Positions 1 to 29,456 of a stretch of DNA of 64,000 nt are shown one piece after another (within the stretch, counting starts at the first letter, position 1; each line of letters starts with the position of its first letter). The stretch lies in the NCBI GenBank assembly GCA_963810095.1, contig CAWEMM010000009.1, positions 352,001-416,000 on the forward strand. The letters run 5' to 3'. This stretch comes from an uncultured Chloroflexia bacterium (lineage in GTDB: Bacteria; Chloroflexota; Anaerolineae; CG2-30-64-16). Position numbers and translations under genes: made by a program. Under the pieces are notes generated by a model. The model did no database searches. It was not told the DNA's origin and saw only the letters and a program-made list of their open reading frames with translations.

Positions 1-667
1 ATATCGCTGTCGCCGGCCTCGGTCGATGGCGTGTTCTGGGAGTTCGGCCCCCAAGTGACGCGTGGCTATTACGCCGACGGCGGTTATCATAAAGTCAACC
101 TGTGGGATGGTGCCAAAGTGGTGGATTTCCCCGCACCCATCGGCACGCAGACCGTCTACATCGTGCCACAGAGCGAAACCCACACGCTGCCGCGCACGCT
201 TGGCGCAAAGTCTGTGACGGTGCGCGGGTGCTTCACGGCGAAGGCCATGCGCCTGATGCAGACGTTGGTCGAATATGGCTTCTTCGAGCCGGAGCCCGTC
301 GAGGTGAACGGCGCGGCCATCAGCCGCCGGGAGTTGATCAAGCAGTATCTCGTGCAGGCGCCCCAAGCCGTCGACGAGCCGGCGTGGGGCTACGGCCTTC
401 ATGTCGAGGTCACAGGACGGCAGGCCGGCCGCACGGTCAAACGCACGCTCTGGACGACGCACCCGCTGGCGGACAAGCCGGGTTGGGCAGGCCCCGAGGC
501 CTGGGCAAAGTGCGTGGCGCTGCCGCTCGTGGCGGGTGCTCTGCTCCTCGCCGAGGGGAACTACTCTGGCACGGGCGTCGATGCGCCCGAAGCATTCCTG
601 CCCACCGAGCCATTCCTGGCAGGAACTGGCGAGCCGGGGCTTGTGCGTGCACGAGAGCGAAGAATAG
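1..667 (+). CDS. Saccharopine dehydrogenase-family protein, C-terminal part (5' end outside window; frameshift near 620)
   Basis: ORF 31.. has FPAPIGTQTVYIVPQSETHTLP and TGVDAPEAFLPTEPFL, typical of this family's C-terminus; a natural end ELASRGLCVHESEE* lies in another frame ending at 667. Confidence 0.6.
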
Positions 668-725
668 GCGCCGGCCAGAAACCGGGTCTCTACGCCAGCG
701 AAGCTGGCGTAGAGACCCGGTTTCT

Positions 726-1869
726 TTATACCCGCCGTTCGACCGAGAACGGGGACAGGTCGAGTTCTGTCTTGCCCGTGATCACGAGCTGGGGCACTAC
801 CCGGCTCATCAGCGGCGTGACGATCACCGTCGACTTGAAGGCCGTTGCCAGGACGAGCCCCTGGACGCCGTCGACAGGCCCCAGGTAGGGCCTGCCGTCG
901 GCGGTGTATGCGACCGGCGCAGCCCAGCCTCGCAGAACGCGGAGCCGGTTCAGCGTGGGGAAGAAGCGACCGATTTCGGCTGCAATGGCGGACTGGCCCG
1001 CTTGGGAGGCGCGGCTTCCCAGGTCTTCCGTGTTCACCCCCGCCTCGCCCAGCAGAAAATGGCCCTCCGGGCTTTGACCCACTGCAAGCACTGCCTTCGC
1101 CTCGGGCTGCACTTCTGCCATCGCTTCGAAGAAGGCCGCCGATGAGATATGGTTACGGAGGGCCTGCTCCGAGCGCTCGGTGACCAGGGCCTGCCCATGC
1201 ACGTGGGAGATGGCCCAGCTCCGTCCGAGCAGGCGGCCCAGGTGCGGCGTCCACGCTGCCTGTTGCAAGCACGGCGACGGGTGCGCTGAAGAGGCCCCGG
1301 TTTGTCCGGAGCCCTGTGAGCCGCCCCCCCGACAGCACGAACTCGGTCACCTCAGTTTCCCGGTGTAGCTCCAGCCCGCAGCGGCGGCCCGCGGCGAGAT
1401 ACGCCTGTATGAACTGGAAGGGGCGCACCTGTCCTTCGCCTGGATAATAGCAGGCCCCCAGCGCGGCACGCGGGGAGATCAAGGGCTCGATCTCGTGTAG
1501 GCGCTCGGCGGGCACGAGCTCGGCCCGCACGCCCCCGGCATGCAGGGCGGGCAGCCGGGCGGCGAGTACCTGCCACTGGGCCTCGGTCTCGACGACAAGG
1601 AGGCTGCCGCGTGGCCGGTAGCCCACCTTTGCACCCAGCTCCTCTTCCAGGGTCGCAAAGCATGCCGCGCCGGTCAGGGTCAGGGGGAGGCTGTTCCCGA
1701 GCTCGCAGTCCTGGACCTGCACGCTGCCGTAGTTCGCACCCGAGCCGCCCGCACCGGGCACCGCACGCTCCAGCAGCGCGGTGTGCAGCCCGGCGGCCGC
1801 CAGCCCATAGGCCACCGCGCACCCGACATAGCCCGCTCCAACCACAAGTGCATCGTAGATTTGCGACAT
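726..1869 (-). CDS. FAD-dependent amine/amino-acid oxidoreductase (DAO/glycine oxidase/HcnC-like), frameshift near 1260
   Basis: N-terminal VVGAGYVG FAD motif and GASG-like GGSGANYG in ORF 1153..1869; C-terminal YTADGRPYLGPV in ORF 726..1268. Confidence 0.85.
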
Positions 1870-1906
1870 GGCGCTGCCATCCTGTCAGTAGGGGGAAGAG
1901 GACGTG

Positions 1907-2001
1907 ATGGTAGCATCCGATGCCGCGGTTGTCAACTGCTGTTATTCGCATCTCCTTCTTGTAAACTGCAGATTGACAGTGGTGCCGACTTGTGCTAAGG
2001 T
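1907..2001. promoter_or_regulatory. Divergent sigma70-type promoter pair with palindromic operator
   Basis: Plus strand TTGACA(1973)-N17-TAAGGT with TGn extension; minus strand TTGACA(1935)-N17-TACCAT with TGn; TGTAAAC-N5-ATTGACA at 1960-1978. Confidence 0.7.
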
Positions 2002-2120
2002 ATGGCCGGCTACCCATGCCTAAGCCCGGTGATCGTTCTCCTAACCTTAACCGTGCTGCAACACAAAGCGGGCTGGCCTTCGGCCCCCGGCACGGTGCAA
2101 CCTCGCCACGGAGGAACTGG

Positions 2121-3473
2121 ATGCCTAACAACGAGATTCACGACCTGAGATCATGGCTGCAAGTCCTGGAATCGGCGGGCCAGCTGGCGCGCGTGCGCCG
2201 GGAGGTCAGCCTGGAGCATGAACTGGCAACGGTGGCCGCCGCGCTGGAGCGGCAAGGCGGGCCCGCACCGCTCTTCGAGTGCGTAAAGGAGTCGCCCTGG
2301 CCGGTCTTCGCCTCGAGCGTGGCGAACCAGGAGCGTGCGGCTCTCGCACTCGCCTGTGACAAGAGCCAGGTAATCGAACGCATGCAGAAGGCAATCGATC
2401 CGGCCCAAGGGATCGCGCCCGTGCGCGTTTCGCGGGCTGCGTGGCAGGATAACGTCGTGACGGGCGCCGACGTCGACGTGACGAAGCTGCCCATTCCCAT
2501 CCACGCCGCGGACGACGGCGGCCCGTTCATCACCAGCGGGGTGATCATCAGCAAGGACCCGCTGACGGGGCGCGGCAACCTGTCATACAACCGGATGCAG
2601 GTTAAGGGACCGCAGGAATTTGGCTTCGACCTGAACGAGTGGCGACACGTGCGCCAGTTCATGGACGTGATGGAGGCCAAGGGTGAGGGGCTGCCCGTTG
2701 CCGTCGCCATCGGGCTCGACCCGGCCATCAAGATCGGCGCGGGCGCGCGCTACGATGGGGACGAACTCTACATCGCCGGGGCCATCCGCGGCCGCGGAAT
2801 TGAGGTCTGCCGGGGCGTGACCGTGGACATCGACATCCCGGCCGAAGCCGAGATCGTGATCGAAGGCTACCTCCCGCCCGGCGTGCGCAAGGGCGAGGGC
2901 CCCCTGGCCGAGTTCCACGGCTACTACGGCCGCATCTGGGAGAGCCCGGTGTTCCGGGTCACCGCGGTCTGCTGGCGCAACAACCCCACCTTCGAGACGA
3001 TTATCCCGGGCTGGAACGAGCACGTGTACATCGGCAACGTGCTGCCTCGCGAGCCGCTGCTGCTGAACTTCGTGAAGCACGTGAGCAAGGGCGTGACCGG
3101 GCTGCACCTGGTGCCCTACGGCAGCGGTTTCACGGCCGTTGTCGCCGCAAAGAAGTCGAACCCCGGCGAGCCGAAGAACATCGCGATGGCCGCGTTCACC
3201 GCGCACGTCAACGTGAAGTGGTGCATCGTCGTCGATCCGGACATCGACATCTACAATCCTGCGGACGTGATGTGGGCGCTGACGACCCGCGTCGACTGGA
3301 GCAAAGACATCTTCCTGGTGCCCGGCAGCCAGGGCCACGAGATGGACCCGACCGCCGACACCCGCGGCGTGCACACCAAGATCGGCATCGACGCGACGGC
3401 AGACAAGGGCCGCCGCGAGAACCTGCCTCGCGTGCGCTATCCCGACGTGGATTTGAGCAAGTACCTGGGTTAG
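2121..3473 (+). CDS. UbiD-family (prFMN-dependent) decarboxylase
   Basis: DGGPFIT, AEIVIEG, EGPLAEFHGYY, IVVDPDIDI, VMWALTTR and KIGIDAT motifs; GGAGG RBS before ATG 2121. Confidence 0.92.
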   Translation: MPNNEIHDLRSWLQVLESAGQLARVRREVSLEHELATVAAALERQGGPAPLFECVKESPWPVFASSVANQERAALALACDKSQVIERMQKAIDPAQGIAPVRVSRAAWQDNVVTGADVDVTKLPIPIHAADDGGPFITSGVIISKDPLTGRGNLSYNRMQVKGPQEFGFDLNEWRHVRQFMDVMEAKGEGLPVAVAIGLDPAIKIGAGARYDGDELYIAGAIRGRGIEVCRGVTVDIDIPAEAEIVIEGYLPPGVRKGEGPLAEFHGYYGRIWESPVFRVTAVCWRNNPTFETIIPGWNEHVYIGNVLPREPLLLNFVKHVSKGVTGLHLVPYGSGFTAVVAAKKSNPGEPKNIAMAAFTAHVNVKWCIVVDPDIDIYNPADVMWALTTRVDWSKDIFLVPGSQGHEMDPTADTRGVHTKIGIDATADKGRRENLPRVRYPDVDLSKYLG

Positions 3474-3490: not shown

Positions 3491-3575
3491 GGACGCAGAT
3501 CGAACTGATTCGACGGATCGACCTGATTTCAGCGAGAGATCATGCAGACCGGTCCGATCAGTTCTATCTGCGTCC
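3491..3575. repeat. Palindromic intergenic repeat, family A (CTGAT-periodic)
   Basis: GGACGCAGATCGAACTGAT ... ATCAGTTCTATCTGCGTCC inverted arms; related copies at 19797, 32494, 44988 and 45141. Confidence 0.75.
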
Positions 3576-5115
3576 TATTCGATATCAGCCCAGCAATCTG
3601 TTTTGCACGCCGGTCAGCTGGCGGGCGACGCGGTCGGTAAACGCCGAACCGCTCGGCGTAGAGGGGCGTCAGCGCCGTGTTTGGCTCGATGCGGCGCACG
3701 GGCGGCTGCAGCGCGGCGATGCCCGCTTCGATGCTCGCATACACGCCGGCACCCCAGCCGGCCAGCACCGCGGCGCCCAGCGCGGCCCAGCTCGAGTAGC
3801 TGGCAACTACGATGGGCACGTCGCCCACGTCCGCCAGGATCTGCGGCCAGATCGGGCTGCCCGTCGCGCCGCCCGACACCCGCAGCTCGTCCACCGCCAA
3901 CCCGGCCGTGCGCAGGTCTTCCAGGAACCACCGCACCTCGAACGCGCACCCCTCCAGGATCGCCCGGCTCATGTCGGCCCGGGTGTGCGCCAGCTCCAAC
4001 CCCGCAAAGGTCGTGCCCGGCACGCCGTCTGGCCCCTGTATCTGCGAAGAGAGCGGTAGGAACAGCAGGTTGTGACTGCCGGGCTCGCTCCCTGCGAGCG
4101 CCCCGTCGAGAAACGCGTAGAGCTGCCGCTTGTCGTATTGGGCCGCCGGGTCGGCCGACTGCCAGCCGTTCTGCAGCCACCAATCGACAATCGCACCAAA
4201 GCCACCGATGTACTGCGTCACCGTCCAGCGGTTCGTCACCGTGTGGAAGCTGATGTTGAGACCCGAGGGGATCACCGTCCGGTCGGGCCGTTCGGCCGTG
4301 CCCGTGATGGTCCACGCGGTGCCCGTCGAGAGCATGTAGCGCCCGGGGACGATGTTGCCCATCGCCATCGACGCGCAGACCTGGTCCATGCCGCCCGCCA
4401 CGACCGGGGTGCCCGCTGGCAGGCCAGTACGGGCGGCTACGTCAGCAGTGATCGGAGCGATGATCCGTCCCGCCCAGCCCAAGCCGGCCTGCGTGTGCCG
4501 GTCGACGCCCCCGAGCGCACACAACTCCTCATTCCAGCGCCCCTCATTGATGTCCACCAGCAGCATTTCGGCCGCGGCCGACAGGTCGGTGGCGAGAGAG
4601 CCTGTCAGGCGGCGGATGAGGAAGTCCGCCGGGCCGAGGTAGCAGGCGGCCGCGGCATGCACGTCGGGCCGGTTCTCCTTGAGCCATGCGATGCTCGGCA
4701 GCGGCAAGCCGGGGAAGGGGTGCCAGCCGCTGAGCCGGGTGATCGTGTCCGCGGTCCCGTCCGCGTACCACTGCTTCATCAGGGCGTTGCAGCGGGTGTC
4801 GAGCCACGTAATCATCGGGTAGACCGGGTCGCCGTTTGCGTCGGCCGGGATGATGGAGCCGCCCTGGGCCGCGAGCGCGAGTGCGAGGATGCGATAGCCG
4901 GGTCCCTCGCCCGCGGCGGCGGCCAGCTTCGCCAGCACGTCGAGGAGCGCCTGCCACACCAGCTCCGAATCCTGCTCGACCCAGCCCGGCTGGGGCGTGA
5001 GGAAGCCGTAGTCGTGGCTGGCAATGGCGATTTCGCCGCCGGCCGCGTCGAAGAGGATGCCCTTTGTCGATGAAGTGCCGATGTCGATTCCGATGATTGC
5101 GTCGCGCATGGTCAT
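3529..5115 (-). CDS. FGGY-family carbohydrate kinase (xylulokinase-like); exact 3' end uncertain
   Basis: [33 protein letters not shown] and [17 protein letters not shown] motifs. Confidence 0.9.
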
Positions 5116-5891
5116 GCCCCCTTCAAGACGGCGAGCGCTTCGCCGGCAGTCGCCCCGCCATGTACGATCGCCGCAATAGCAGCGGTCATACGCCGGGGGT
5201 CGTCCGCCTGGAACACGTTACGGCCGATGGCGACCCCGGCCGCGCCGGCCTGCCCCGCAGCCCGGATGCTCTCGAGCATCATTTCGGGCTGGTCCTGGCG
5301 CGCGCCGCCCAGGATCACCACGGGCACGTAACAGGTCTCGACCACCCGATCAAAGGGGGCCGCGTAGGGCACCTTAACCCAGTCTGCCCCTAACTCTGCG
5401 GCCACCCGGGCGCTCAGCGCGATATTCTCGACGGTGAAGAAGGCCGGTCCAGCGTCAAAACCGCCCGGCTGCATCTCTGCCAGTACGGGTAAGCCCCACG
5501 CGTGCGCCTCTGCGATGACGTGCGCCAGCGTCCGCAGTGTCTCGCGCTCCTGGGGCGTGCCGGGAAACGCCGAGACCACGACCGCGTCCGCGCCAATGCG
5601 CAGGGCATCCTCCACCGTGTAGAACTGGGCCCCCGGGCCCGATGCACCCAGCTTCGTCCCCCCGCCGTCTAGCCGCACGATCAAGCCGGCAGGGGCGAGT
5701 TCGTCGGCGAAGCGGGTGGCCACGCCGAAGCTCGTGAGAATGGCGTCCGCGCCGCCTGCAACAATTTGGCGTAGCGTGTCGCCCGGTCGTTCGATGCCAG
5801 GGATCGGCCCGTCGATCAATCCGTGATCGAATGCGACGATGACGGCTCGGCCGTCAGCGTTGAAAATGCGGCGTATGCGACGATTGAACAC
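5112..5891 (-). CDS. Class I aldolase, DhnA/LsrF family
   Basis: [17 protein letters not shown] (Schiff-base Lys) and GRNVFQ motifs; AGGAG RBS before GTG 5891. Confidence 0.88.
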
Positions 5892-6054: not shown

Positions 6055-6819
6055 CTACCGGGGGCCCGCTTCCAGCACCCGCAGGCCCGCGTCGACCGGC
6101 AGGAGGATGCCGGTGATGTAGCTCGCTGCAGGCGACGCGAGGAAGACGGCCGCGGCGGCCAGTTCCTCCGGCTCGCCGTAGCGCTTGAACGGAATGAACC
6201 GCTCGAGCTCGGCCGCGACGGCCTCGGGCATCTTGCCCAGAAGCATTTCGGTGCGGAAGAGGCCGGGCGCGATCGCGTTGACGCGGATGTGATAGGGCGC
6301 CAGGTCGAGGGCCATGGCCTTGGTCAGGCTTTCCAGGCCGCCCTTGCTCGCCGCGTACGCGGTGCGCCCCGGGATGGTCTGCTGGGCCAGGATCGAGGTG
6401 ATGTGGATGATCGCGCCCTGCTGCCTGGGCGCCATGCGCCGGGCGACGAGTTGGCTCAGGTAAAACACGCCGCGCAGGTTTGTGTTCAACACCTTGTCCA
6501 GGTCGTCGAGATTGACATCCAGGAAGCGGTTGTGATCGACCGCGCCCGCGTTGTTCACGAGCACGCCAATGGGGCCGATGGCTTCGGCCGCGGCGACCAT
6601 CCGCTCGCAGTCTCCTGTCTGGCTGACATCCGCCTGGCACGGAGTGGCCAGGCCGCCCGCGGCCGCGATTTCGGCAACCGTCTCGGCTGCGCCGGCTTCG
6701 TCTGCCCGGTAGTTCACGATCACGTGCGCGCCCCGTGCGGCGAACGCCTTGGCGACGGCTCGCCCGATTCCCCGGGAGGCGCCGGTGACCAGTGCGACGG
6801 CGCCCGTAAACTCAGCCAT
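6055..6819 (-). CDS. Classical short-chain dehydrogenase/reductase (FabG-like)
   Basis: TGASRGIG, NNAG, YAASK and VNAIAPG motifs. Confidence 0.92.
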   Translation of the reverse strand: MAEFTGAVALVTGASRGIGRAVAKAFAARGAHVIVNYRADEAGAAETVAEIAAAGGLATPCQADVSQTGDCERMVAAAEAIGPIGVLVNNAGAVDHNRFLDVNLDDLDKVLNTNLRGVFYLSQLVARRMAPRQQGAIIHITSILAQQTIPGRTAYAASKGGLESLTKAMALDLAPYHIRVNAIAPGLFRTEMLLGKMPEAVAAELERFIPFKRYGEPEELAAAAVFLASPAASYITGILLPVDAGLRVLEAGPR

Positions 6820-7792
6820 TCCCGTTGCCTCCGGCTTTGCCGCCGAAGAACGAGCGTTTCAGCACGGCCACGTCGACATGGCCGGCCGAAAAGGTGCGGC
6901 CGGTGGTCAGGTTCGTCATGTGGAGCACGGCAGGGCGTGTGCATGTCGGCAGGGATCGCGTGGAAGTCGTAGTTCGCTTCCTGGTAGAGCTGCGAGAACG
7001 ACTTGCCGCCGATGCGGGAGGCCGAGGTGACGATTGCAGGCACGACCTGGGCGAGCAGGTCGTCCGTCCGCCTCGACGTACAGGCTCACCTCGCCGCCAT
7101 AGATCAGCGCGTCGTTGATCCGCCCGAACGAAGTCAGCTCGTCATGGGTCAGGGGGGGGATGGGCGCGACGCAGGAGGCGAAGCGGATGCAGCGAAGGTC
7201 GAACTCGGCCAATGCCAGCCGGTGCATGGTGAGTTCCACCACCGCGGGCAGGCACCTGCACGGTCGAGATCAGGCACGCGTGCTTGGAAGCGAGGATGTA
7301 CAGGTTCTCTGGCTGCAAGCCGCACGCGTCGGCCATCTTCTGCGCCATTTCCTCGGTGACCGGGCGGGTCATCTGCACGGTCACGACGCCCTCGTGATAG
7401 CGGTCCCGGTAGCTGATGTAGTCGAAATAGTGGTCGGGCTCGTGGTTGAGCGCGCGGGCCGGGCCCGAGAGCACGGGCGCGTCCGGTTCCTTCGCAAGGA
7501 CCCAGCCCGCCACCTGGCACCCCATGCAGGCTTCGAGCGCTCGGTTGACCATGACGCGGACGCCGGGCACCCGGATGTCGCCGAGGGGGAAGCTCTCGTA
7601 GCTGACCTCGGCCAGGTTACCGAGAGTCACCCGCGTGAAATACTTGGCCGCTTCCCAGCTGCCCGGCGCCTTCTGCCCCATGTCGATGAGCGTCGCACCA
7701 TTGGGGAAGTGCGAGACCTCGACCCCCAGCGCCTCGGGCGCGGCGAGGATCTCCCGGATCAGTTTCATGGTTTCGGCGTTGACACTTAGCAT
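6812..7792 (-). CDS. mch: Methenyltetrahydromethanopterin cyclohydrolase (Mch)-family protein, copy 1 (about 3 frameshifts)
   Basis: MLSVN...GATLIDMG, CQVAGW, LSGPARAL, STVQVPAR(V)VE, APIPP, GRINDALIYGG and GKSFSQLYQEANYDFHAI across ORFs 7142..7792, 6916..7242 and 6720..7043. Confidence 0.82.
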
Positions 7793-7834: not shown

Positions 7835-7904
7835 AACCACAAAGGTTCACAAAGGACGATTCCTTCAGCCTTGTGGACCTTCGTGGCTTGGTGTCTTTGT
7901 GGTT
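7835..7904. repeat. Palindromic intergenic repeat, family B
   Basis: AACCACAAAGGTTCACAAAGG ... CCTTCGTGGCTTGGTGTCTTTGTGGTT. Confidence 0.7.
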
Positions 7905-8847: not shown

Positions 8848-8910
8848 GACGGAATCCTTTCGCGTTTCTCCCTGCCAAGTGCCGCGCACCTTGGAAGATG
8901 CCCCGCACTT

Positions 8911-14632: not shown

Positions 14633-14645
14633 GAGGAGACGCCCC

Positions 14646-17158: not shown

Positions 17159-17184
17159 GGCCGACCGATGAAGGAAATGACCAC

Positions 17185-19788: not shown

Positions 19789-19796
19789 AAGAACGC

Positions 19797-20893: not shown

Positions 20894-20972
20894 CAGGCGC
20901 TCGGGTTAGGCGTTGGGGCGGGCTGCGCTCGCCCCAACAGCGTTTTGTCCGCGTCTTTGGGCAGGGGTAGGA

Positions 20973-22200: not shown

Positions 22201-22994
22201 CTATCCAAAGATCTGCTTGACCTTCTCCAGCGCCTCGGCCTCGGTGGTCGAGGGGTAGAATTCGAGCCCGATCAAGCCATCATACTTCAACTCGTGCAGC
22301 TTTTTGGCGATGTTCGGGAAATTGACCTCTCCCGTGCCCGGCTCCTGCCGGGTCGGGGCGTCGCCCACGTGCACGGCCTCGTAAAGCCCCGCATACTGCT
22401 CCAGCCCCCAGATCAGGTTCCCCCGTCGCGCTGCTGATGATAACAGTCAAAAGCCATGTGGAGCTTGGGATGGTCGAACCGGCGCACCCAGTCGGCCGCG
22501 AGATCGTGTTGGTGGACGAGGATGCCGCCCTTGATGTGAAACTCGTTCAGGGCCTCCACCCACACCTTCACCGGGGTCTGCTCGACGAGCTTGAGGATGC
22601 GCTCGGTCTGCTTCAGGCAGTTGGCGTACTGCTCGGCAGGGGTGAAGTTCGAGGACAGCCGCCGGGTGATCGTCCGGCCGTCGACAAAGTCGACCTGGTT
22701 CGAGAAGAGGAACAGGTACTGGACGCCGTACTGGCAGGCCATGTCCAGGCTTTCGGCCCACGTGCGATAGGTCAGCTCGTTGTCGCCGGGATCGGCGAAA
22801 GAGCCCATCTCGTCGTCGAAGGTCGAGTTGATGACGGCCCCCAGGCGGCGGCATTCGGACGCGATCTCGGCCATGGGCTGGCTGCGCCACGACCAGGCAT
22901 CCACCCGCTTGATCCCCAGCTTGCAGATCGGCTCCACCCGCTCGACCATCGGCCGGTCGGTGAACCAGAAATCCAGGTAACCCGTGAACTCCAT
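22201..22994 (-). CDS. Hydroxypyruvate isomerase (Hyi)/sugar phosphate isomerase-epimerase TIM barrel; frameshift near 22420
   Basis: VEALN, FDCYHQQ; downstream frame gives VHVGDAPTRQEPGTGEVNF and IGLEFYP. Confidence 0.82.
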
Positions 22995-23099: not shown

Positions 23100-24125
23100 C
23101 TATACTAGGCGGTGCCGCAACTCGCCGCCGCGCAGGATGGCTTCGATGTTGACGTAATCCCCCGCACGCATCGCGCCGGTCAGGCGGATCGCGCCCGCGG
23201 CAACGTGCGGCGTCAGGATGAGGTTGACCATCGGGTCGCGCGCGAGCGCCAGCAGCGGGTTATCGGGCTGTACCGGCTCCCAGGTGAAGCCGTCGACTGC
23301 GGCGCCACCGAGGTGTCGGGACCGCACGGCCTCGGCCAACGCGTTCTCGTCCACCGTGCCGCTGCCGCCGGTCTGGATGAAGAGGCTGCCCGGCTTCATG
23401 CAATTGAAGAACTCGGCATTGATGGATTCCTCCGCGCCAGGCAGGAGCGGCAGCAGCGCGATGACCACGTCGCAGCTCGCGGCCAGCTCATCTTTGCTGA
23501 CATAATGCAGGCCGAATTGCTGCTCGGCGACGGTGGGCAACTGGCGCCGCTTGTTGTACAGGACCGTGGACCCGAAGGGCTTGAGCCGGATCGCGAGCTC
23601 CAGGCCGATCTCGCCGAAGCCCAGGATGCCTACCTTCTTGTCCATGATCCCGCCGATGTCCTCGCGTCGCGCCCAGTTGTAGGCGAAGTAGTCTTCGTCG
23701 CACTTACGGGGAGGCGTGCCCCAGTCGTCGCCGTCCTCTGAGATCTTCATCAGCTCGCGCACCCGCTTGACCAGTCCCAGCATTTGCAGGAAGACATGCT
23801 CGGCCACGAGCTGGCATGTCTGCACCGGCAGGCAGCAAACGGGGATGCCCGCCGCCTGGGCCGCGGCGAGGTCCAGGTCCCAGGTCTGAATGCCCAACCG
23901 CTGGATCAGCCGCAGATTCTTGCCGGCCGCGATCATGTCCGCGTCGACCACACCCGTACGCTCGGAGATGAAGAACTCCATTTCGGGCAGGAGTGCGAGA
24001 ATCTCTTCCTTGCTCGGGTCGCGGCGCATCACTACGTCCAGCTCGGCCGGCGCGCCCTCGAGCGCCCACTGCTGCTGCTGCTGGCCGCGCTGGGTGACGA
24101 ATAGGATGTGGTGTTTGAGATCCAC
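23100..24125 (-). CDS. D-isomer-specific 2-hydroxyacid dehydrogenase
   Basis: VAEH, VGILGFGEIG, VDENALAEA, EPV and TPHVA motifs; GGAGG RBS before GTG. Confidence 0.88.
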   Translation of the reverse strand: MDLKHHILFVTQRGQQQQQWALEGAPAELDVVMRRDPSKEEILALLPEMEFFISERTGVVDADMIAAGKNLRLIQRLGIQTWDLDLAAAQAAGIPVCCLPVQTCQLVAEHVFLQMLGLVKRVRELMKISEDGDDWGTPPRKCDEDYFAYNWARREDIGGIMDKKVGILGFGEIGLELAIRLKPFGSTVLYNKRRQLPTVAEQQFGLHYVSKDELAASCDVVIALLPLLPGAEESINAEFFNCMKPGSLFIQTGGSGTVDENALAEAVRSRHLGGAAVDGFTWEPVQPDNPLLALARDPMVNLILTPHVAAGAIRLTGAMRAGDYVNIEAILRGGELRHRLV

Positions 24126-24165: not shown

Positions 24166-25659
24166 CTAGACGAGCGACGTCCAGACGGCCTTGACCTCGG
24201 TGTAGGCCTCGATAACTTCAAGCCCATTGTCGCGGCCGTAACCGCTGCCTTTGAAACCGCCAAAGGGCGATGCCGGGTCGAAGCGGTCATAGGTGTTGAC
24301 CCAGACCACGCCCGCCTTGACCGCCGCCGCAACCCGGTGCGCGCGGGCCACATCGCGGGTCCAGACGCCGGCCGCCAGCCCGTAGGTCGTGTCGTTCGCC
24401 CGGGTGATGACTTCCTGCTCGGTTTCGAACGGCAAGACCGGTACGACAGGCCCGAAGATCTCCTCGCGCGCCACCGTCATATCGTCGCGCACCCCGGTGA
24501 GGATGGCCGGCTCCATGTAGCAGCCGCCCGCGTACTCGCCCTCGGTCAGCCGCCGGCCGCCGTGCCACAGCGTCGCGCCCTGGTCCAGCCCGCCCTGCAG
24601 GTAGCCCTGGATCGAGTCGAGCTGGCTGGGGTGGATGATCGGGCCAATGTCGGTCGACAGGTCGAAGGCGTCGCCGATGCGAGCGGCTTTGACCGTCGCC
24701 GTCAGCTTCTCGAGCACCTGGTCGTAGACGGGCTTCTGCACAAACAAGCGCGCGCCTGCGACACAGCTCTGGCCGGTGAAACCAAAGCCCGCATTGAACG
24801 CGCCGCGCACGGCCGCATCGACGTCGGCATCGGCAAAGATGATGTTGGGCGCCTTGCTGCCCAGCTCGAGCGCCAGCCGCTTGAGGTTCCCGGCCGACGC
24901 CTTGATGATGCCGCGGCCCACCGCAGTGGAGCCCGTGAACTGGACCTTGTTGATGCCGTCGTGTTCGGCCAGCGCCGACCCGATCACCGGGCCGGGGCCG
25001 GTCAGGACATTGACCGCACCTTCGGGGAAGCCGGCTTCCTGGATCAGCTCGGCTAGCCGGATGATCGGCAGCGAGGCCCACTGGGCGGGCTTCAGGATGA
25101 CGGTGTTGCCGCACGCCAGCGCGGGTCCCATCTTCTGCACCGCATGGATCAGCGGGTAGTTCCAGGGGATAATGATCGCGACGACGCCCAACGGCTCGCG
25201 GCGGGTGTACACGAAATGGTCGAGCGCGCCGATCGACGGGGTATAGCCCGCAATCTTGCCGGGCCAACCCGAATAGTGGTAGGCCAGCCGAGTGGCGACG
25301 CGGGTGTCGATCATGCGGGTCTTCTTGAGCGGCTTGCCGTTGTCCAGCGATTCGATCTCGGCCAGTTCGCCCGCATGTGCGGTCATCAGGTCGCCCAGCT
25401 TGCGCAGGCAGGCCTCCCGGTCGCCCGGCGCCATCTTGCCCCAGCTCGTCTCAAATGCCTTGCGCGCCGCTGCGACGGCAGCTTCAACCTCGGGCACGCC
25501 GGCCTGCGCCAGCTCGGCCAGGCATGCGCCGTCGGAGGGGTTGTCGGTTCTGAAATGCCCGCCCGACGCCGCGTCCACCCACTGACCGCCGACGAACAGC
25601 TTGAACGGCGAACGTGCGAGGAATTGCTGCGTGGCCAGGCTGATCGGTTCCTTTGCCAT
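24166..25659 (-). CDS. NAD(P)-dependent aldehyde dehydrogenase
   Basis: IIPWNYP, FTGSTAVG, ELGSKAP, GQSCVAG, EEIFGPV and PFGGFKGSG. Confidence 0.93.
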   Translation of the reverse strand: MAKEPISLATQQFLARSPFKLFVGGQWVDAASGGHFRTDNPSDGACLAELAQAGVPEVEAAVAAARKAFETSWGKMAPGDREACLRKLGDLMTAHAGELAEIESLDNGKPLKKTRMIDTRVATRLAYHYSGWPGKIAGYTPSIGALDHFVYTRREPLGVVAIIIPWNYPLIHAVQKMGPALACGNTVILKPAQWASLPIIRLAELIQEAGFPEGAVNVLTGPGPVIGSALAEHDGINKVQFTGSTAVGRGIIKASAGNLKRLALELGSKAPNIIFADADVDAAVRGAFNAGFGFTGQSCVAGARLFVQKPVYDQVLEKLTATVKAARIGDAFDLSTDIGPIIHPSQLDSIQGYLQGGLDQGATLWHGGRRLTEGEYAGGCYMEPAILTGVRDDMTVAREEIFGPVVPVLPFETEQEVITRANDTTYGLAAGVWTRDVARAHRVAAAVKAGVVWVNTYDRFDPASPFGGFKGSGYGRDNGLEVIEAYTEVKAVWTSLV

Positions 25660-25676
25660 GTGTCCTCCAAAAACCC

Positions 25677-26863
25677 CTAGCAGGGCAGGTTGAGCGGCTT
25701 CCGCATCTGCGCCAGGATCGCCGCACAGTCCTCTGCGCTCGCCGGTCGGGGATTGTTGCCGAGCAGCACCATCCGGGTCGTCTCTTCGGCGATCGCCGCC
25801 CAGTCCGGCTCGACGCCGTCGTGCGCTTGCGCCTCGGGCAGTTCGCTCAGGGTGGTCGGCAGGCCAAGCCCGTGCACGAACCGGCCCAATGCCGTCGACC
25901 AACTCGTCGTCGCTTGCTCCAGCCCCCAGCCCCATCACGGCCGCGAGCCGCCCGCGACGCTCGGCCGCGATCGCAGGCAGGTTGAACCGGAGGACGTAGG
26001 GCAGAAGCACCGCATTCGCCAGCCCGTGGTGCAGGTGCAGGTGGCCGGTCAGAGGGCCAGAGAGCGCATGGACAAGCCCCAGCCCGGCCTGATCCATGGC
26101 GATGCCGCCCCAGGCGGCCGCCAACATCATGTGCTGCCGCGCTTCCATATCGTTGCCGTCGACGGTCGCCCGCGGCAGCATGCGCCAGGTCGTCTCCAGC
26201 GCTGCCAGGGCCAGCTGATCGGTAAAGGGATTCGCCCGCTTGCCTGTGTAAGCCTCGATCGCATGCACGAAGGCGTCCATGCCCGTCGCCGCGGTCATGA
26301 GCGGCGGCAGCGAGCGGGTCAGCTCGGGGTCGAGGATGGCCGAGTGTGCGAACATGAGCGGGCTGAGCACGCCCTTCTTGAACGGGCGGTCGGGGTCGAC
26401 GATGACCATCACCTTGCTCACCTCGCTGCCCGTGCCCGCCGTGGTCGGCACCGCGAGCACCGGGAAGGCTCCGCTGGGTGATGGGCTTGCCGCCCCATTG
26501 GTAGTCCGGGTAGCTGCCGCCGTTCGCCACGAGCATGGCGATGGCTTTGGCGACGTCGATGGCGCTGCCGCCGCCCAACGCCACGAGGGCTTGGACCCCT
26601 TGCTCCAGGGCGATGGCGAGACCGGCATGCACTTCGGTGGTCGTGGGATTGGTGCTGACGTCGGAGAAGGCGAGCACCGTAAAGCCCGCTTCTTGCAGCG
26701 CGGCGCAAAACCGTTCGGGCCAGCCAAGTTGGGCCAGGCCCCGATCGCTGACGAGAAGCACCCGCATCGCGCCAAGCGCTTTGAGCTGCGTCTTCAGCGC
26801 TTCGACCGCGGGCTGCCCGAAAAGCACCTGCGTGGGCAGCGTGAAAGCAAATGCTGAGAGCAT
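25677..26863 (-). CDS. Iron-containing alcohol dehydrogenase (2 frameshifts)
   Basis: ALGGGSAIDVAK, PTTAGTGSE, TGMDAFVHAIE, HALS and HHGLAN. Confidence 0.88.
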
Positions 26864-26893
26864 CGTTCCTCCTCGCTGAGGGTGTGAATCAGC

Positions 26894-28315
26894 CTAATCT
26901 TCGGCCCCAACCGCCATGTCTGCCAATGCGACGGGGTGGATCGGCGGGCGGGGTGTGAAGATCCCGGTCGCATGACGCGAGGCAAGATAGTCCTCGCGCA
27001 GGCCGGCCTCACGCATCAGGATGCGGGCGGCCAACTCGCCACAGATCCGGCCCTGGCAATTGCCCATGCCCAGGCGGGTGAGGGCTTTCAGTTCCGTCGT
27101 CGAGCGGACACCGTCGGCTGCGGCCGCCCGGATGTCTCCCGCGGTCACTTCCTCGCACCGGCAGATGATCGTGTCTTCGTGGGCGAGCTCGAAGATGCCG
27201 GGACCCGGGGTGTAGAACTGCCCGAGCATGGCCGCGAAGCGACGCTCGCGGCGCAACGGGCCCTTCAGACGGTCCACCTTCTGCTGCACCTGCTCGGGGG
27301 CGAGGCGGCCGAGCGACCCGGCGGCCGAATACCCCGCCACCTGCCCTTCCAGCGCGGAGAGCGCGGCGCCGCCGATGCCCGCACCGTCGCCGGCCATGTA
27401 GACGCGGCCGAGCGAGGTCTGCATATTCTCGTCGCGCACCGGCACGTAGCCGCCCCGACGCAGGTCGTACTCGTGCGCGCACCCCAGCAGCCGGCTCAAC
27501 TCGGTGGACGGGATGAAGCCGTAGCCCAGGAGGATCGTGTCGGCCTTGACGACTTGCTCGCTGCCCTTCACCGGCCGCCACGTCTCGTCTAGCCGAGCGA
27601 TCACTGCCTCTTCAACCTGGTCCGCGCCCCGCGCTTCGACCACGGCCCAACCGAACCGGTACGGCACGCCGCGGAGCGCTCGCAGGTAGCTCCAGCCTTC
27701 GCGCACCCGGTCCCACTGCCCCCACATGGCGGCAGCCTGGCGCACGTTCCGCCGGCCCATCGAAGAACCTTCCAGGATGGCGGCAACTTCTGCACCCGCA
27801 CGCACGAGGGACGCGGCAACTGCAAGTTGCAGCGGGCCTGTGCCCGACAGGAGTACCCTGCGACCCGCCAGCACCCGCTGATTCTTCAGGAGGGTCTGTG
27901 CTGCGCCGGCGGTCATCACGCCTGGCAGCGTCCAGCCGGGGAAAGCGACCGGGCGGTCGTATGCGCCGGTCGCGAGGATCAGGGCCTCCGTCGACAGGGC
28001 GGGCGGCGAAGACGGGCCGCTGAGGGCCACCTCCCAGCAGCCCCCCGCAGGGGCCGGGAACGTGCCCCAGACCGTGGTCTCCGAAAGGACCCGGACCTTG
28101 GCATCGCGCAGTTTGCTCATGAGCGAGACGGCCGCGACCTGGTGGTCCGTGCGGTCGTCTGCCCGAAAAGCGGCAGGCAGCTGCCGGAAGTATTGGCCCC
28201 CGGGGCGGGCATAACCGTCGACCAGGACGACCTGTGCGCCGGACTCTGCGGCTGCCACAGCAGCGTTGATGCCCGCAGGCCCTGCGCCGATGACGACGAC
28301 TTCCACCTGTTCCAT
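26894..28315 (-). CDS. FAD/NAD(P)-binding oxidoreductase with C-terminal BFD-like 2Fe-2S domain (HcnB/opine oxidase A-like)
   Basis: IGAGPAG, ATGAYDRPVAFPGWTLPGV, ICRCEEV, TRLGMGNCQGRIC and RPPIHP. Confidence 0.88.
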   Translation of the reverse strand: MEQVEVVVIGAGPAGINAAVAAAESGAQVVLVDGYARPGGQYFRQLPAAFRADDRTDHQVAAVSLMSKLRDAKVRVLSETTVWGTFPAPAGGCWEVALSGPSSPPALSTEALILATGAYDRPVAFPGWTLPGVMTAGAAQTLLKNQRVLAGRRVLLSGTGPLQLAVAASLVRAGAEVAAILEGSSMGRRNVRQAAAMWGQWDRVREGWSYLRALRGVPYRFGWAVVEARGADQVEEAVIARLDETWRPVKGSEQVVKADTILLGYGFIPSTELSRLLGCAHEYDLRRGGYVPVRDENMQTSLGRVYMAGDGAGIGGAALSALEGQVAGYSAAGSLGRLAPEQVQQKVDRLKGPLRRERRFAAMLGQFYTPGPGIFELAHEDTIICRCEEVTAGDIRAAAADGVRSTTELKALTRLGMGNCQGRICGELAARILMREAGLREDYLASRHATGIFTPRPPIHPVALADMAVGAED

Positions 28316-28320
28316 CGCTA

Positions 28321-28617
28321 TCACCCCGCTCGCGTCTCGATGGCCATGCCGGGGACCAGGGTCGTCATGCACGCCCGCAGGTTGGGCACGCCGTCGATGG
28401 TGACCAGGCAGTCGTAACAGATGCCGATGCCGCAGAAGATGCTCCGGGGCTGGCCGTTCTTGGGCGTGTGGCGGAAAGTGCGGATGCCCTCCGCGAGGAG
28501 CAGGGCAGCGACCGTCTCGCCGGAATAGGCGCTCACGGCGTGCCCGTCAACCTGCACGGTGATCGGCTCGCCGCGCTGGGCGAGGGGCAACTCGGGGTCG
28601 GATTGGGTGACTCGCAT
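28321..28617 (-). CDS. 2Fe-2S-binding subunit (HcnA-like)
   Basis: GETVAALL, FCGIGICYDCLV and RACMT. Confidence 0.9.
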   Translation of the reverse strand: MRVTQSDPELPLAQRGEPITVQVDGHAVSAYSGETVAALLLAEGIRTFRHTPKNGQPRSIFCGIGICYDCLVTIDGVPNLRACMTTLVPGMAIETRAG

Positions 28618-28700
28618 ACGAAGCCTCCGGTGGCATTCATGGCGGCCGGTCCAGGTGTGGTGCTAGTCAGGAGCGTGCTCGGCGTAAATCGCCAACATGG

Positions 28701-28743
28701 ATGGTATCACGGGGTCCGAGAAGTGTCAACTGCCAGTTGACAC
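28701..28743 (-). promoter_or_regulatory. Promoter with perfect palindromic operator
   Basis: GTGTCAACTG-C-CAGTTGACAC (28723-28743) overlaps minus-strand TTGACA-N17-TACCAT with TGn. Confidence 0.75.
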
Positions 28744-28769
28744 CGTTCACTCGTTGTAGGCGACCTAGA

Positions 28770-29336
28770 TCAGTTACTCGCCCGGGCGATGGCCGAAATG
28801 TAGTCTGCGGAAGTGTCGCCCAGGGCCCGGATGTTCTCCAGGTAGCGGTTCTCCAGATACATGCAGTCCCCGGCCCGTAGCTCATAGATCTTACCGGCGA
28901 GCGTGATCTCGACGGTGCCCGAGAGGACGACAATACACTCTTCGCCGGGGTCGCCCACCAACTGCTGAAGGGTGTAGCCTGCGGCCGGCTCGAGGCAGAC
29001 GCGGAACAGCACCATTTTGCGCGTGACCTGGGGCGTTAGCACCTCGTAACTGACGTGTGTGTCGGGGAAGACCAGGCGACCACGGGTCTCGGCGCGCACG
29101 ACAAGGTTGTCGGCCGACGTATCGGCCAGGAGGCGCGGCAGCGCGATCTTGAGCGCGTTGGCTATGCTGAGGGCCGAGGCGAGGGTCGGGTTGGCCCGGC
29201 CGCGTTCGAGGTTGCTCAGGAACGTTGCGCTCAAGTTCGTCAGTTCCGCCAGGTCGCGCAGGCTGAGGCCAAGCTCCTGTCGCCGTTCCTTGATGCGCTC
29301 GCCGAAATGAGCGTAATCCTCGGAAAATTCGTCCAT
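28770..29336 (-). CDS. XRE-family HTH regulator with C-terminal cupin sensor (PuuR/SutR-like)
   Basis: LSLRDLAELTNLSATFLSNLERGRANPTL HTH; GEECIVVLSG...LRAGDC cupin. Confidence 0.9.
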   Translation of the reverse strand: MDEFSEDYAHFGERIKERRQELGLSLRDLAELTNLSATFLSNLERGRANPTLASALSIANALKIALPRLLADTSADNLVVRAETRGRLVFPDTHVSYEVLTPQVTRKMVLFRVCLEPAAGYTLQQLVGDPGEECIVVLSGTVEITLAGKIYELRAGDCMYLENRYLENIRALGDTSADYISAIARASN

Positions 29337-29414
29337 GTCATCGTCCTTCGCAATGCAGCATCGCTAAGTCACGAATGCCGCCAATTACGTGTAGTTGCAA
29401 TTCTGTATGTGAGA

Positions 29415-29456
29415 ATCATACCAGACACTGCACGATTCGTCAACCACGAGTTTGTA
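29415..29456 (-). promoter_or_regulatory. Promoter of the XRE regulator with degenerate operator
   Basis: Minus-strand TTGACG-N17-TATGAT with TGn; CGTCAAC-N5-GTTTGTA at 29438-29456. Confidence 0.55.

Follow-up and report, generated by a model that had tools for sequence, protein, structure and literature searches.

The main reductive route of anaerobic purine degradation has been described in two preprints of 2025 (Li et al., bioRxiv 10.1101/2025.05.19.654654; Liu et al., 10.1101/2025.04.24.650524). In this route, a reductase paired with the amidohydrolase SsnA performs reductive dearomatisation, which is followed by ring cleavage (Li et al., 10.1101/2025.05.19.654654). Li et al. also describe a reductase that varies between organisms: it is YgfK in one version and the PydA-like UacX, which has no flavin adenine dinucleotide (FAD) domain, in C. 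difficile, and in SsnA neighbourhoods of Chloroflexota a luciferase-family protein, putatively an F420 reductase, stands in its place. The E. coli uric-acid cluster consists of xdhD-ygfM, ygfK, ssnA, hyuA, ygeW, ygeY, ygeX and yqeA; the C. difficile variant has UacX. Here we analyze a stretch of 64,000 nucleotides (the window; contig CAWEMM010000009.1, positions 352,001 to 416,000, in our codes G000:C9:352001-416000) from an uncultured Chloroflexia bacterium, which carries at its left end a candidate regulon for the catabolism of a nitrogen heterocycle (N-heterocycle), with two divergent paralogues of the cyclohydrolase Mch. We propose, with a probability of about 0.5, that this regulon of ~31 kb (G000:C9:350,595-381,336) is repressed by an XRE-cupin protein and serves to import and dismantle a sugar-bearing N-heterocycle, most likely one resembling a purine nucleoside. 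This estimate excludes the order of the catabolic steps.

Gene content of the locus

The G000 assembly comprises 6.13 Mb in 16 contigs and is 88.5% complete, and the GC content is ~66%. The nearest named relatives of its Mch genes belong to metagenome-assembled genomes (MAGs) of Anaerolineales, Anaerolineae and other Chloroflexota. An earlier note, made from the letters alone, had read positions 1-29456 as a ~29-kb co-regulated system for the catabolism of a heterocycle with a sugar or amine side chain, such as a pterin-type cofactor, a flavin breakdown product or a modified nucleoside. Pfam searches of the open reading frames (ORFs) of the window recovered all gene families it had named: Sacchrp_dh_C, two DAO, UbiD, FGGY, a DeoC/LacD (DhnA-type) aldolase, a short-chain dehydrogenase/reductase (SDR), two MCH, E2 with lipoyl and catalytic domains, E1 beta, E1 alpha, Bmp, two BPD_transp_2 permeases, an ABC ATPase, DHO_dh with 4Fe-4S domains (PreA-like), AP_endonuc_2 (Hyi-like), 2-Hacid_dh, Aldedh, Fe-ADH, Pyr_redox_2 with Fer2_BFD and SO_alpha_A3 (HcnB/SoxA-like), Fer2_4 (HcnA-like) and HTH_3 with Cupin_2. 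The amidohydrolase was identified mainly from its intact same-genus orthologue, since the fragment in the window by itself reaches 20.7 bits, short of the cut-off of 25. A weakly matching URO-D-like gene at 10875-11937 is an addition to that list. Three qualifications apply to the earlier description: many genes are frameshifted as assembled, the most visible shared motif is not the candidate operator, and the left boundary is cut by the window edge. The regulon starts ~1.4 kb further upstream, within the adjoining 20 kb (L111; G000:C9:332001-352000), which extends the ~29 kb to ~31 kb. There, a Sacchrp_dh_NADP match on L111:19524-20000 is in frame with window base 1. The seven transcription units in Table 1 were assigned from strand, spacing and promoters.

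A candidate shared operator and regulator

The 9-mer CAGTTGACA occurs in 13 exact copies in 6.13 Mb, four of which are located in promoter gaps of the cluster (1930, 12102, 28724 and 28734). The last two form a perfect 19-bp palindrome upstream of the Fer2_4 operon and beside the XRE-cupin gene, with no + strand gene downstream. As read from the sequence, each exact site overlaps a TTGACA -35 box with a plausible -10 box 17 nt away. The palindrome recurs with 1 mismatch in L016, a 14.8-kb contig of the same-genus genome G007, and with 0 mismatches in L031 and L033. Half-sites are also present in promoter gaps of L025, L028, G196 and G221, and in G196 and G221 the site between Bmp and MCH1 is the same as in the window. 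In addition, a 3-mismatch copy at L111:18595 precedes the upstream unit of a TIM isomerase and Sacchrp_dh. At up to 5 mismatches, the cluster loci yielded 21 operator matches in 0.28 Mb, versus 23 in 1.15 Mb of control loci.

The protein encoded beside the palindrome combines an HTH_3 with a cupin domain, and its orthologues are found in G007, G011, G021, G196, G221, L031-L033 and L037. The XRE-cupin protein probably represses the regulon through TGTCAACTG-N-CAGTTGACA operators. Exact sites lie in three promoter regions of the cluster; in the promoter of the XRE gene itself, no match was found at up to 5 mismatches. Nor did the motif scan find an operator site in the purine-type cluster further upstream.

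A more conspicuous CACAAAG/CACGAAG repeat, built of 8-nt periodic units, was considered as the shared operator and rejected. Its inverted pairs (5929-6033, 7838-7908, 13404-13501 and 23014-23099) lie in gaps between same-strand genes, and another copy at 63497-63551 is outside the cluster. The motif gave 7 intergenic matches against 0.03 expected, but its 19-nt core turns up 387 times genome-wide, while the reversed control gives a single match, which marks it as a REP-like element. A second palindromic family of ~90-100 nt with 40-nt arms occurs just after gene ends at 3487-3588, 19792-19893 and 44993-45081, with 67 genome matches on both strands; Rfam offers for it no more than a chance resemblance to a miRNA hairpin. 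One near-match to the half-site is explained by the TTGACA loop of a GC-rich hairpin, probably a terminator, at 22150-22190 between the convergent PreA-like and Hyi genes. An Rfam search of 1-30000 at E values up to 5 found no riboswitch in the long leaders, FMN and tetrahydrofolate (THF) types included; the one match it gave, on a palindromic repeat, was to a miRNA and is put down to chance.

Conservation in other genomes

Relatives, the class and a genome collection were searched with Mch queries (G- and L-codes denote the genomes and fetched loci compared). Cluster-type Mch contexts are present in 15 other genomes (G007, G011, G021, G196, G221, G204, G297, L031, L032, L033, L034, L036, L037, L038 and L057), no two of whose loci are near-copies (no pair with 97% identity over 1 kb). 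The genome collection supplied 80 Mch loci that were kept, and eight of them show the cluster context; the other seven genomes come from the relatives and class searches. Among the queried neighbours, the remaining 72 loci gave only scattered SDR, ABC, FGGY or PreA-like matches of 27-38% identity. Synteny is therefore conserved, in reshuffled versions. The trait is rare and patchy: of 301 genomes sampled from the class, 6 (G000 included) carry an MCH1-type gene with an identity of 55% or more.

The recurrent core has three parts: Mch with SDR and E1/E2 (or E1 and a lipoyl protein); Mch with DAO and amidohydrolase, often with a BMP importer; and the XRE-cupin regulator. In G196 and G221, which belong to another family, the arrangement is nearly that of the window. 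In L031 and L033, one operon behind a perfect palindrome encodes RibD_C-like, amidohydrolase, Mch, DAO, Fer2_4, HcnB-like, Hyi, aldolase, FGGY, Mch and aldo-keto reductase (AKR) proteins; in L031 its 11 genes, with gaps of at most 67 nt, unite the genes for sugar processing with those of the amine dehydrogenase and two copies of Mch. FGGY orthologues of 51-64% identity adjoin MCH2 in L031-L033, aldolase orthologues are found in L031-L033, G196 and G221, and DAO1 orthologues of 39-42% identity in L031 and L033. The SDR gene is a conserved neighbour of MCH1-type genes, adjoining them in G007, G011, G021, G204, G297, L034, L036 and L037. L036 joins HyuA-like and SsnA-like amidohydrolases, a three-subunit xanthine dehydrogenase (XDH) and DAO1 to E1 alpha, E1 beta, a lipoyl protein, SDR and Mch, followed by two further amidohydrolase genes, FGGY, HcnB-like, Fer2_4 and DAO2. 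In L037, an XDH large subunit flanks the E1-E2-SDR-Mch module and a luciferase-family gene lies directly 3′ of Mch. L038 holds an FTCD_C-like protein and an M20 peptidase.

Not all components are shared. The signature of mch, ubiD, preA-like and BMP genes suggested in the earlier note was not borne out: UbiD (no tblastn match) and Sacchrp_dh were found in none of the fetched loci of the 15 genomes, and the PreA-like gene in one, G011. Likewise, among the other loci the URO-D-like gene is present only in G196, where the orthologue has no NCBIfam match, and 2-Hacid_dh only in L038. At otherwise colinear spots, G007 has neither the PreA-like gene nor 2-Hacid_dh (L016 compared with window 20913-22133 and 23100-24125), which indicates recent gene gain or loss inside the cluster. 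The reductase varies between clusters (PreA-like, RibD_C-like or luciferase-family), in parallel with the variation that Li et al. report for uricolytic clusters.

An adjacent reductive purine cluster

The 20 kb upstream of the window contain, in order, a second E1 alpha/beta pair, an aldehyde:ferredoxin oxidoreductase, a frameshifted XDH-family gene (L111:~5800-8317) and a YgeW-like carbamoyltransferase, and then 2-Hacid_dh and amidohydrolase fragments, YgeY, dihydropyrimidinase/HyuA, an SsnA-like protein, a second PreA-like protein, the TIM isomerase and Sacchrp_dh. YgeY (342 bits) and dihydropyrimidinase/HyuA (500 bits) exceed their cut-offs of 321 and 393. For the SsnA-like amidohydrolase, SsnA is the top match at 246 bits, below the cut-off of 455; for the truncated YgeW-like frame, the YgeW model is the top match at 207 against 453. 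Carbamate kinase is encoded on another contig of G000. A search of the 88.5%-complete genome for the diaminopropionate ammonia-lyase YgeX gave a best match of 29.8 bits, far under the cut-off of 274, and so did not recover it. The region matches a variant of the reductive uric-acid, or 2,8-dioxopurine, cluster and abuts the regulon.

The regulon itself differs from that cluster. Pfam found no XDH, HyuA, YgeW or YgeY in the window units of 1-29456, and the listing of E. coli and C. difficile cluster genes consulted here (Li et al.) includes no Mch, HcnABC-like dehydrogenase, E1/E2, BMP importer or sugar enzymes. What the two appear to have in common is the pairing of a flavin reductase with an amidohydrolase, by which the ring would be dearomatised and then cleaved, and amidohydrolases related to SsnA. 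Moreover, the PreA-like proteins of both the window and L111 consist of DHO_dh and 4Fe-4S domains and have no FAD domain, as in UacX. The window amidohydrolase, by contrast, favours a deaminase model over that of SsnA (382 versus 200 bits). The earlier note had asked whether the locus matches a characterized pathway: we found no paper describing the combination in the window units, but the DNA just upstream does match one. This neighbour shifts the odds toward a purine-type substrate and away from a pterin or flavin.

Two diverged Mch paralogues

Both window paralogues are covered by PF02289 over their full length, and the MCH2 orthologue of G007 aligns end to end with Mch of M. kandleri (1QLM) at 240 bits. 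MCH2 is 90% identical to its L016 orthologue. The chains of 4GVQ and 4GVR differ, Glu versus Gln, in the motif GR(I/V)V(E/Q)T. This difference locates the catalytic Glu, presumably Glu186, and both MCH1 and MCH2 keep Glu at this position with the preceding Arg. In a quick IQ-TREE phylogeny of 90 sequences (15 context-defined and 75 canonical Mch; midpoint root, three non-cluster rows long-branched), a branch supported at 99% (SH-aLRT) sets all 15 context-defined sequences, which form three long subclades, apart from the canonical ones. Branches of the cluster paralogues measure 0.55-1.23 substitutions per site. Among 60 columns conserved at 90% or more in the 75 canonical Mch, the three subclades keep 36, 44 and 41, and replacements common to all three are E140Q, F107A, Y96 to I/V/A and F286 to H/D. 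Retention of the Glu/Arg motif together with replacement of invariant residues suggests a hydrolytic mechanism that is kept in a binding pocket that has changed.

The paralogues thus share full-length homology and the Arg/Glu motif with the canonical Mch of methanogens, Archaeoglobus and methylotrophs, but differ in forming a separate long-branched clade, in 16-24 changed columns of the 60 conserved ones and in lying inside catabolic operons. A canonical role with tetrahydromethanopterin (H4MPT) was rejected, since searches of the 88.5%-complete genome recovered neither Ftr (PF01913) nor Fae (PF08714) nor beta-RFAP synthase (TIGR00144). In related Anaerolineae, second Mch copies outside such clusters (L018:6600-7553, L019:8067-9026 and L027:9721-10668) have Ala at the position of the catalytic Glu, and one of them also has His for the preceding Arg; these copies may be inactive or repurposed.

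Enzymes of the candidate regulon and their nearest relatives

Multi-subunit flavoprotein dehydrogenases include HcnABC, opine oxidase, D-hydroxyproline dehydrogenase and heterotetrameric sarcosine oxidase, and the HcnABC-like enzymes cut secondary C–N bonds. The regulon encodes candidate parts of such an enzyme: a DAO-type subunit, a Pyr_redox_2 subunit with BFD-type 2Fe-2S and SO_alpha_A3 domains, and a small Fer2_4 subunit. These three genes are contiguous in L031, L033 and L036; in the window, however, DAO2 is in a separate transcription unit from the Fer2_4 and HcnB-like genes, and NCBIfam scores are far under the cut-offs. Judged by family membership and gene order elsewhere, DAO2 is probably the beta subunit of an HcnABC-like dehydrogenase.

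The importer resembles the nucleoside importers of the BMP/PnrA family (CUT2): its genes for a Bmp protein, a pair of BPD_transp_2 permeases and a tandem ABC ATPase follow one another as is typical of such systems. For the amidohydrolase, the L016 orthologue has 5′-deoxyadenosine deaminase as its top NCBIfam match (382 bits, cut-off 522) and reaches 200 bits for SsnA, where the cut-off is 455.5. Its nearest models are 5′-deoxyadenosine deaminase, TRZ/ATZ and 8-oxoguanine deaminase, and its solved relatives 4DYK, 4GBD and 4F0R. The PreA-like protein scores 146 bits with the PreA model of NCBIfam, under the cut-off of 335. The closest solved relatives of UbiD in a PDB search are AnInD and 6H6V (283 bits), the latter a furan-dicarboxylate decarboxylase. 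NCBIfam places the aldolase nearest to the ADH-synthase/DhnA subfamily and the aldehyde dehydrogenase nearest to betaine-aldehyde and aminoaldehyde enzymes.

The FGGY kinase, DeoC/LacD class I aldolase and isomerase, followed by aldehyde and alcohol dehydrogenases, resemble the Lsr system for autoinducer 2 (AI-2) and the 5-deoxyribose dihydroxyacetone phosphate (DHAP) shunt. All model scores are nonetheless under the cut-offs (xylulokinase 242 versus 380, AI-2 kinase 152 versus 528, LsrF 162 versus 297), and the window isomerase is of the Hyi family, unlike those in the Lsr and 5-deoxyribose shunts. E1 alpha, E1 beta and E2 may belong to a 2-oxoacid or acetoin dehydrogenase complex, for which the cluster holds no E3. 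E1 beta passes a subfamily model only, and the E1 alpha of G196, at 277 bits, stays below its cut-off of 394.

Frameshifts in the assembly

As assembled, at least 13 genes change frame: DAO1, MCH1, E2, E1 alpha, Bmp, both permeases, the ABC ATPase, the amidohydrolase, DAO2, MCH2, Hyi and Fe-ADH. Many Pfam matches are partial, with adjoining fragments continuing the profile in another frame. The Sacchrp_dh ORF extends to 888 and thereby crosses the hairpin at 677-725, a hint of one more frame error close to the 3′ end of the gene. L016 is colinear with window 13253-29336 at 77-83% DNA identity, and its orthologues of the window genes are single open frames. Mapping its proteins on the window located frame changes in both permeases, the ABC ATPase, the amidohydrolase, DAO2, MCH2, Hyi and Fe-ADH.

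We further compared positions 10000-29500 with Logan contigs from four public runs, three of them labelled freshwater sediment metagenome. The share of words in these runs is small (0.09-0.18), and the evidence is that of the aligned pieces alone. Several pieces of 190-470 nt are otherwise identical to the window. Among the 12 indels listed, beyond which there are 14 more, 11 are single bases, and 10 of the 11 are an extra base in the window. Eight of those listed (14464, 14796, 15026, 18021, 18348, 22419, 25892 and 26462) match frame switches inferred independently from L016, and several are common to two or three runs. Since the same-genus orthologues are intact and near-identical short-read contigs carry single-base indels at the breaks, we read the frame breaks as consensus errors of the assembly; the cluster genes are probably intact in the organism. 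By comparison with the dense single-base indels in 10000-29500, the stretch for which reads were compared, ORFs at 32-64 kb look long and regularly spaced.

Features and flanks of the cluster

The features of the cluster are collected in Table 1. Past its right end, a RibD_C gene at 34134-34700 was dropped as a cluster member, its likeness to the L031 RibD_C-like protein being marginal (22.7 bits, E 0.004). A STAND/NB-ARC ATPase gene lies at 34849-37017, ~5 kb past the cluster, and a BTAD-NB-ARC-TPR regulator gene lies past the L031 cluster (L031:18681-20957), maybe by coincidence.

Table 1. Transcription units, genes and regulatory elements of the candidate regulon, in window coordinates
Feature	Position	Strand	Basis and remarks
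Unit: TIM isomerase, Sacchrp_dh		+	begins upstream of window
Sacchrp_dh-like gene, 3′ part	1..675, end approximate	+	Sacchrp_dh_C match; start upstream at L111:19524
Hairpin, perfect 23-nt arms	677..725		100% complementary inverted repeat between convergent Sacchrp_dh and DAO1; probably two-way terminator
Unit: DAO1		-	
DAO1, DAO-family FAD oxidoreductase, frameshifted	726..1869	-	Pfam DAO profile positions 1-204 of 353 on ORF 1153-1869; rest in ORF 726-1268
DAO1/UbiD divergent promoter region	1930..1978		exact CAGTTGACA half-site 1930-1938; degenerate palindrome TGTAAACTGCAGATTGACA at 1960, 4 mismatches; TTGACA-17 nt-TAAGGT
Unit: UbiD		+	
UbiD-family decarboxylase	2121..3473	+	Pfam UbiD_N, UbiD, UbiD_C; TIGR00148 312.8 bits, cut-off 244.85
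Unit: URO-D-like, E1 alpha, E1 beta, E2, MCH1, SDR, aldolase, FGGY		-	
FGGY-family sugar kinase	3529..5115	-	Pfam FGGY_N, FGGY_C; top NCBIfam xylulokinase 242 bits, under cut-off 380
DhnA-type class I aldolase (DeoC/LacD family)	5112..5891	-	Pfam DeoC; NCBIfam PRK07226 230 bits against 241; LsrF-type 162 bits
SDR oxidoreductase	6055..6819	-	Pfam adh_short_C2
MCH1, Mch-family cyclohydrolase paralogue, three frames as assembled	6830..7792	-	three PF02289 pieces, profile positions 1-285; catalytic-Glu motif VVELTMHRL
E2 lipoyl acyltransferase, frameshifted	7865..8889	-	Biotin_lipoyl on 8605-8889; 2-oxoacid_dh on 7865-8170
E1 beta of thiamine pyrophosphate-dependent dehydrogenase	8911..9888	-	Transket_pyr, Transketolase_C; pyruvate dehydrogenase E1-beta subfamily model 350.7 bits, cut-off 321
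E1 alpha, frameshifted	9890..10860	-	E1_dh profile positions 3-78 and 101-229 in two frames; read indel at 10096
URO-D-like accessory gene, probably frameshifted (two overlapping ORFs)	10875..11937	-	weak URO-D match, 28.2 bits
Divergent promoter of URO-D-to-FGGY and Bmp-to-PreA units	12040..12130		exact CAGTTGACA half-site 12102-12110; TTGACA-17 nt-TATTAT (+), TTGACA-17 nt-TAACAT (-)
Unit: Bmp, two permeases, ABC ATPase, amidohydrolase, DAO2, MCH2, PreA-like		+	
BMP-family substrate-binding protein, frameshifted	12327..13386	+	Pfam Bmp on 12518-13303; ATG and hydrophobic N-terminus at 12327; read indel 13265; closest solved relative of the fragment 7X0R, 78 bits
Two BPD_transp_2 permease genes, frameshifted	13546..15572	+	frames mapped on L016 orthologues; read indels 13676, 14464, 14796, 15026
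Tandem-domain ABC ATPase, at least 4 frames	15570..17165, bounds approximate	+	ABC_tran fragments; frames mapped on L016
Amidohydrolase, deaminase / TRZ-ATZ / SsnA group, frameshifted	17185..18545	+	mapped on L016 orthologue; read indels 18021, 18348
DAO2, SoxB/ThiO-like flavoprotein, frameshifted	18624..19790	+	Pfam DAO; frames against L016; NCBIfam ThiO and SoxB under cut-offs
MCH2, Mch-family cyclohydrolase paralogue, one frameshift near 20164	19927..20893	+	PF02289 profile positions 1-68 and 55-311; motif QVASRTVE
PreA/PydA/UacX-like flavin reductase, two 4Fe-4S motifs, without FAD-binding partner domain	20913..22133	+	Pfam DHO_dh and Fer4 families
Unit: Fer2_4, HcnB-like, Fe-ADH, Aldedh, 2-Hacid_dh, Hyi		-	
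Hyi-like TIM-barrel isomerase, one frameshift	22204..22994	-	AP_endonuc_2 in two pieces; C inserted after 22419 in three runs
D-2-hydroxyacid dehydrogenase	23100..24125	-	Pfam 2-Hacid_dh_C; orthologue of 52% identity in L038
Aldehyde dehydrogenase	24166..25689	-	Pfam Aldedh 553 bits; top NCBIfam betaine-aldehyde dehydrogenase 498 bits, under cut-off 593
Fe-dependent alcohol dehydrogenase, three frames	25698..26872	-	Fe-ADH, ADH_Fe_C; read indels 25892, 26462
HcnB/SoxA-like flavoprotein subunit	26894..28324	-	Pyr_redox_2, Fer2_BFD, SO_alpha_A3
HcnA-like 2Fe-2S subunit	28321..28617	-	Fer2_4, 101 bits
Candidate operator, perfect palindrome TGTCAACTG-C-CAGTTGACA	28724..28742		zero mismatches, 0.01 matches expected; overlaps -35 box
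Unit: XRE-cupin		-	
XRE-cupin transcription regulator	28770..29336	-	HTH_3 and Cupin_2

Discussion

The shared, cluster-enriched motif over several transcription units, the synteny and the combination of genes, for which we found no published description, make it likely that the genes form one co-regulated heterocycle-catabolic system. In this respect the interpretation of the earlier note is partly supported; its gene signature is not, and its substrate stays a matter of inference. No riboswitch or equivalog match identifies the compound, and of the substrates it had listed, the odds now favour a purine type over a pterin or flavin. We hold a substrate of the purine-nucleoside type only tentatively.

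These components enable us to propose a putative route. Initially, the BMP/CUT2 ABC importer would take up the compound, and the amidohydrolase of the nucleoside/heterocycle-deaminase group would strip an amino group. The PydA/UacX-like flavin reductase (PreA-like) would then dearomatise the ring, with the RibD_C-like or luciferase-family gene in its place in other clusters. Reduction of C4=C5 in a purine without an 8-oxo group would leave a cyclic formamidine, the group that Mch attacks in methenyl-H4MPT. The two Mch paralogues might hydrolyse such formamidine carbons, as on methenyl-H4MPT, to yield N-formyl intermediates and formate. Afterwards, the dehydrogenase of the HcnABC/opine-oxidase type (DAO, Fer2_4 and HcnB-like) could cut the secondary C–N bond and free the sugar or polyol, which the isomerase, FGGY kinase and class I aldolase would convert to triose phosphate and an aldehyde for the aldehyde and alcohol dehydrogenases. 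Finally, E1/E2 and the SDR may turn a leftover 2-oxo or hydroxy-keto fragment into an acyl-CoA; their roles are the weakest part of the scheme. We base this scheme on the pairing of reductase and amidohydrolase in the known purine route, the formamidine chemistry, the C–N cleavage by HcnABC and the presence of sugar genes in operons of ring enzymes. That the steps follow one another in exactly this order is doubtful.

More specifically, and with a good deal less confidence than in the regulon as a whole, Mch could have been recruited from one-carbon (C1) metabolism to hydrolyse the formamidine carbons C8, C2 or both in purine nucleosides that are reduced or cationic, with the HcnABC-like enzyme replacing a nucleosidase, in an oxygen-independent and formate-releasing route. 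Rings of the inosine or adenosine type, once dearomatised by a flavin enzyme, would be candidate substrates, as would N-methylated nucleosides, 7-methylguanosine among them. We regard this version as speculative. If true, it would give Chloroflexota a purine-nucleoside route complementary to the 2,8-dioxopurine pathway of the neighbouring cluster.

Several observations count against the proposed regulon and its substrate. NCBIfam and PDB searches of 30 proteins gave no match that names the substrate, and no enzyme reached a substrate-naming equivalog cut-off. No nucleoside phosphorylase or hydrolase is seen in the cluster. Similarity to the solved BMP/PnrA nucleoside binders is weak (at most 78 bits for 7X0R; 30-50 bits for Med, BmpD and others). 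Since the PreA-like, UbiD and Sacchrp_dh genes are not conserved elsewhere, parts of the scheme would be lineage-specific. After E1, L036 (8945-9181) and L037 (near 6431) encode only a lipoyl protein of ~80 amino acids, and the query used found no E2 catalytic domain there, which makes the role of E1/E2 uncertain. Because the half-site includes the -35 consensus TTGACA, part of its recurrence could reflect promoter similarity. The read support for intact frames has a depth of only 2-6 and covers 10000-29500. Lastly, a C1 adduct of a folate or pterin may still be what the Mch fold acts on, as has been proposed for Haloferax, whose Mch homologue would use methenyl-THF (PMC8305020).

This last point leads to the alternative that survives best, although it too is unlikely: a pterin- or flavin-type substrate, such as ribityl-lumazine, a riboflavin fragment, folate, a neopterin- or biopterin-like pterin or methanopterin from methanogens, with Mch acting on a pterin C1 adduct or a pterin-like ring. 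The Mch fold in its known form (240 bits to 1QLM) binds a pterin, and with a kinase, aldolase and isomerase of the polyol type the cluster would be equipped for a side chain that is ribityl or polyhydroxylated. Related clusters add families known from pterin and flavin chemistry (the RibD_C-like reductase in L031/L033, the FTCD_C-like protein and M20 peptidase in L038 and the luciferase-family gene beside Mch in L037), XDH-family enzymes lie nearby, and near-identical sequence occurs in freshwater sediment metagenome runs, where cofactors of methanogens can be supposed. The adjacent cluster, however, fits the purine (uric acid) pathway and no known pterin pathway, and the nearest models and solved relatives of the deaminase are enzymes for adenosine analogues, 8-oxoguanine and triazines. 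Replacement of Y96, F107, E140 and F286 in all three cluster subclades implies an altered pocket, and neither an FMN nor a THF riboswitch turned up in 1-30000.

It is rather improbable that the Mch copies are housekeeping-type methenyl-tetrahydrofolate cyclohydrolases that do not act on the ring and instead recycle C1 units from sarcosine-oxidase-like dehydrogenases or formimino transfer. A Haloferax homologue is proposed to act on methenyl-THF (PMC8305020), and such a role would agree with the kept catalytic motif, the resemblance of the DAO and HcnB-like subunits to SoxB and SoxA and the FTCD_C-like gene in L038. Yet a conserved role does not predict two or three diverged, long-branched paralogues per cluster with invariant residues replaced, and the genes are found among amidohydrolase, DAO, E2 and SDR genes rather than folate enzymes.

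The 29 kb could also be a chance mosaic of unrelated catabolic operons (sugar/polyol, amine/opine, acetoin/pyruvate and transporter) with a motif that is merely a -35 box, an explanation to which we assign a low probability. The TTGACA within the half-site, the UbiD, Sacchrp_dh, URO-D-like, 2-Hacid_dh and PreA-like genes that come and go between genomes and the function calls made at family level only would all be expected of a mosaic. Against it stand a rare 9-mer with 4 of its 13 genome sites in the cluster, a perfect 19-bp palindrome where no + strand gene follows, and a single tight operon of sugar, amine-dehydrogenase and Mch genes in L031 and L033. In addition, the same families surround cluster-type Mch in 15 other genomes, as in none of the other 72 of the 80 kept loci. 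A decaying set of pseudogenes, as the at least 13 frame-changing genes might suggest, is barely credible and was rejected, because short-read contigs, some otherwise identical, correct 8 independently inferred frame switches, the predominance of extra bases in the window (10 of the 11 listed single-base differences) points to systematic consensus error, and the G007 orthologues are intact.

The related and adjacent reductive purine pathway is known; what would be new here is the recruitment of Mch into a heterocycle-catabolic regulon. In the literature searched, we found no description of an Mch homologue in heterocycle catabolism or of this gene combination, and a search on aminoimidazole, formiminoglycine and UbiD returned no such cluster. 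The conserved palindrome and the XRE-cupin regulator offer an experimental handle on the inducer, and hence on the substrate. If the proposed regulon is real, a marker family of methanogenesis and methylotrophy would have a second role as a ring-opening hydrolase in heterocycle catabolism, and Mch matches in metagenomes could no longer be taken automatically as C1 metabolism. It would also represent a new branch of anaerobic purine/nucleoside degradation, in Anaerolineae-type Chloroflexota known here only from MAGs.

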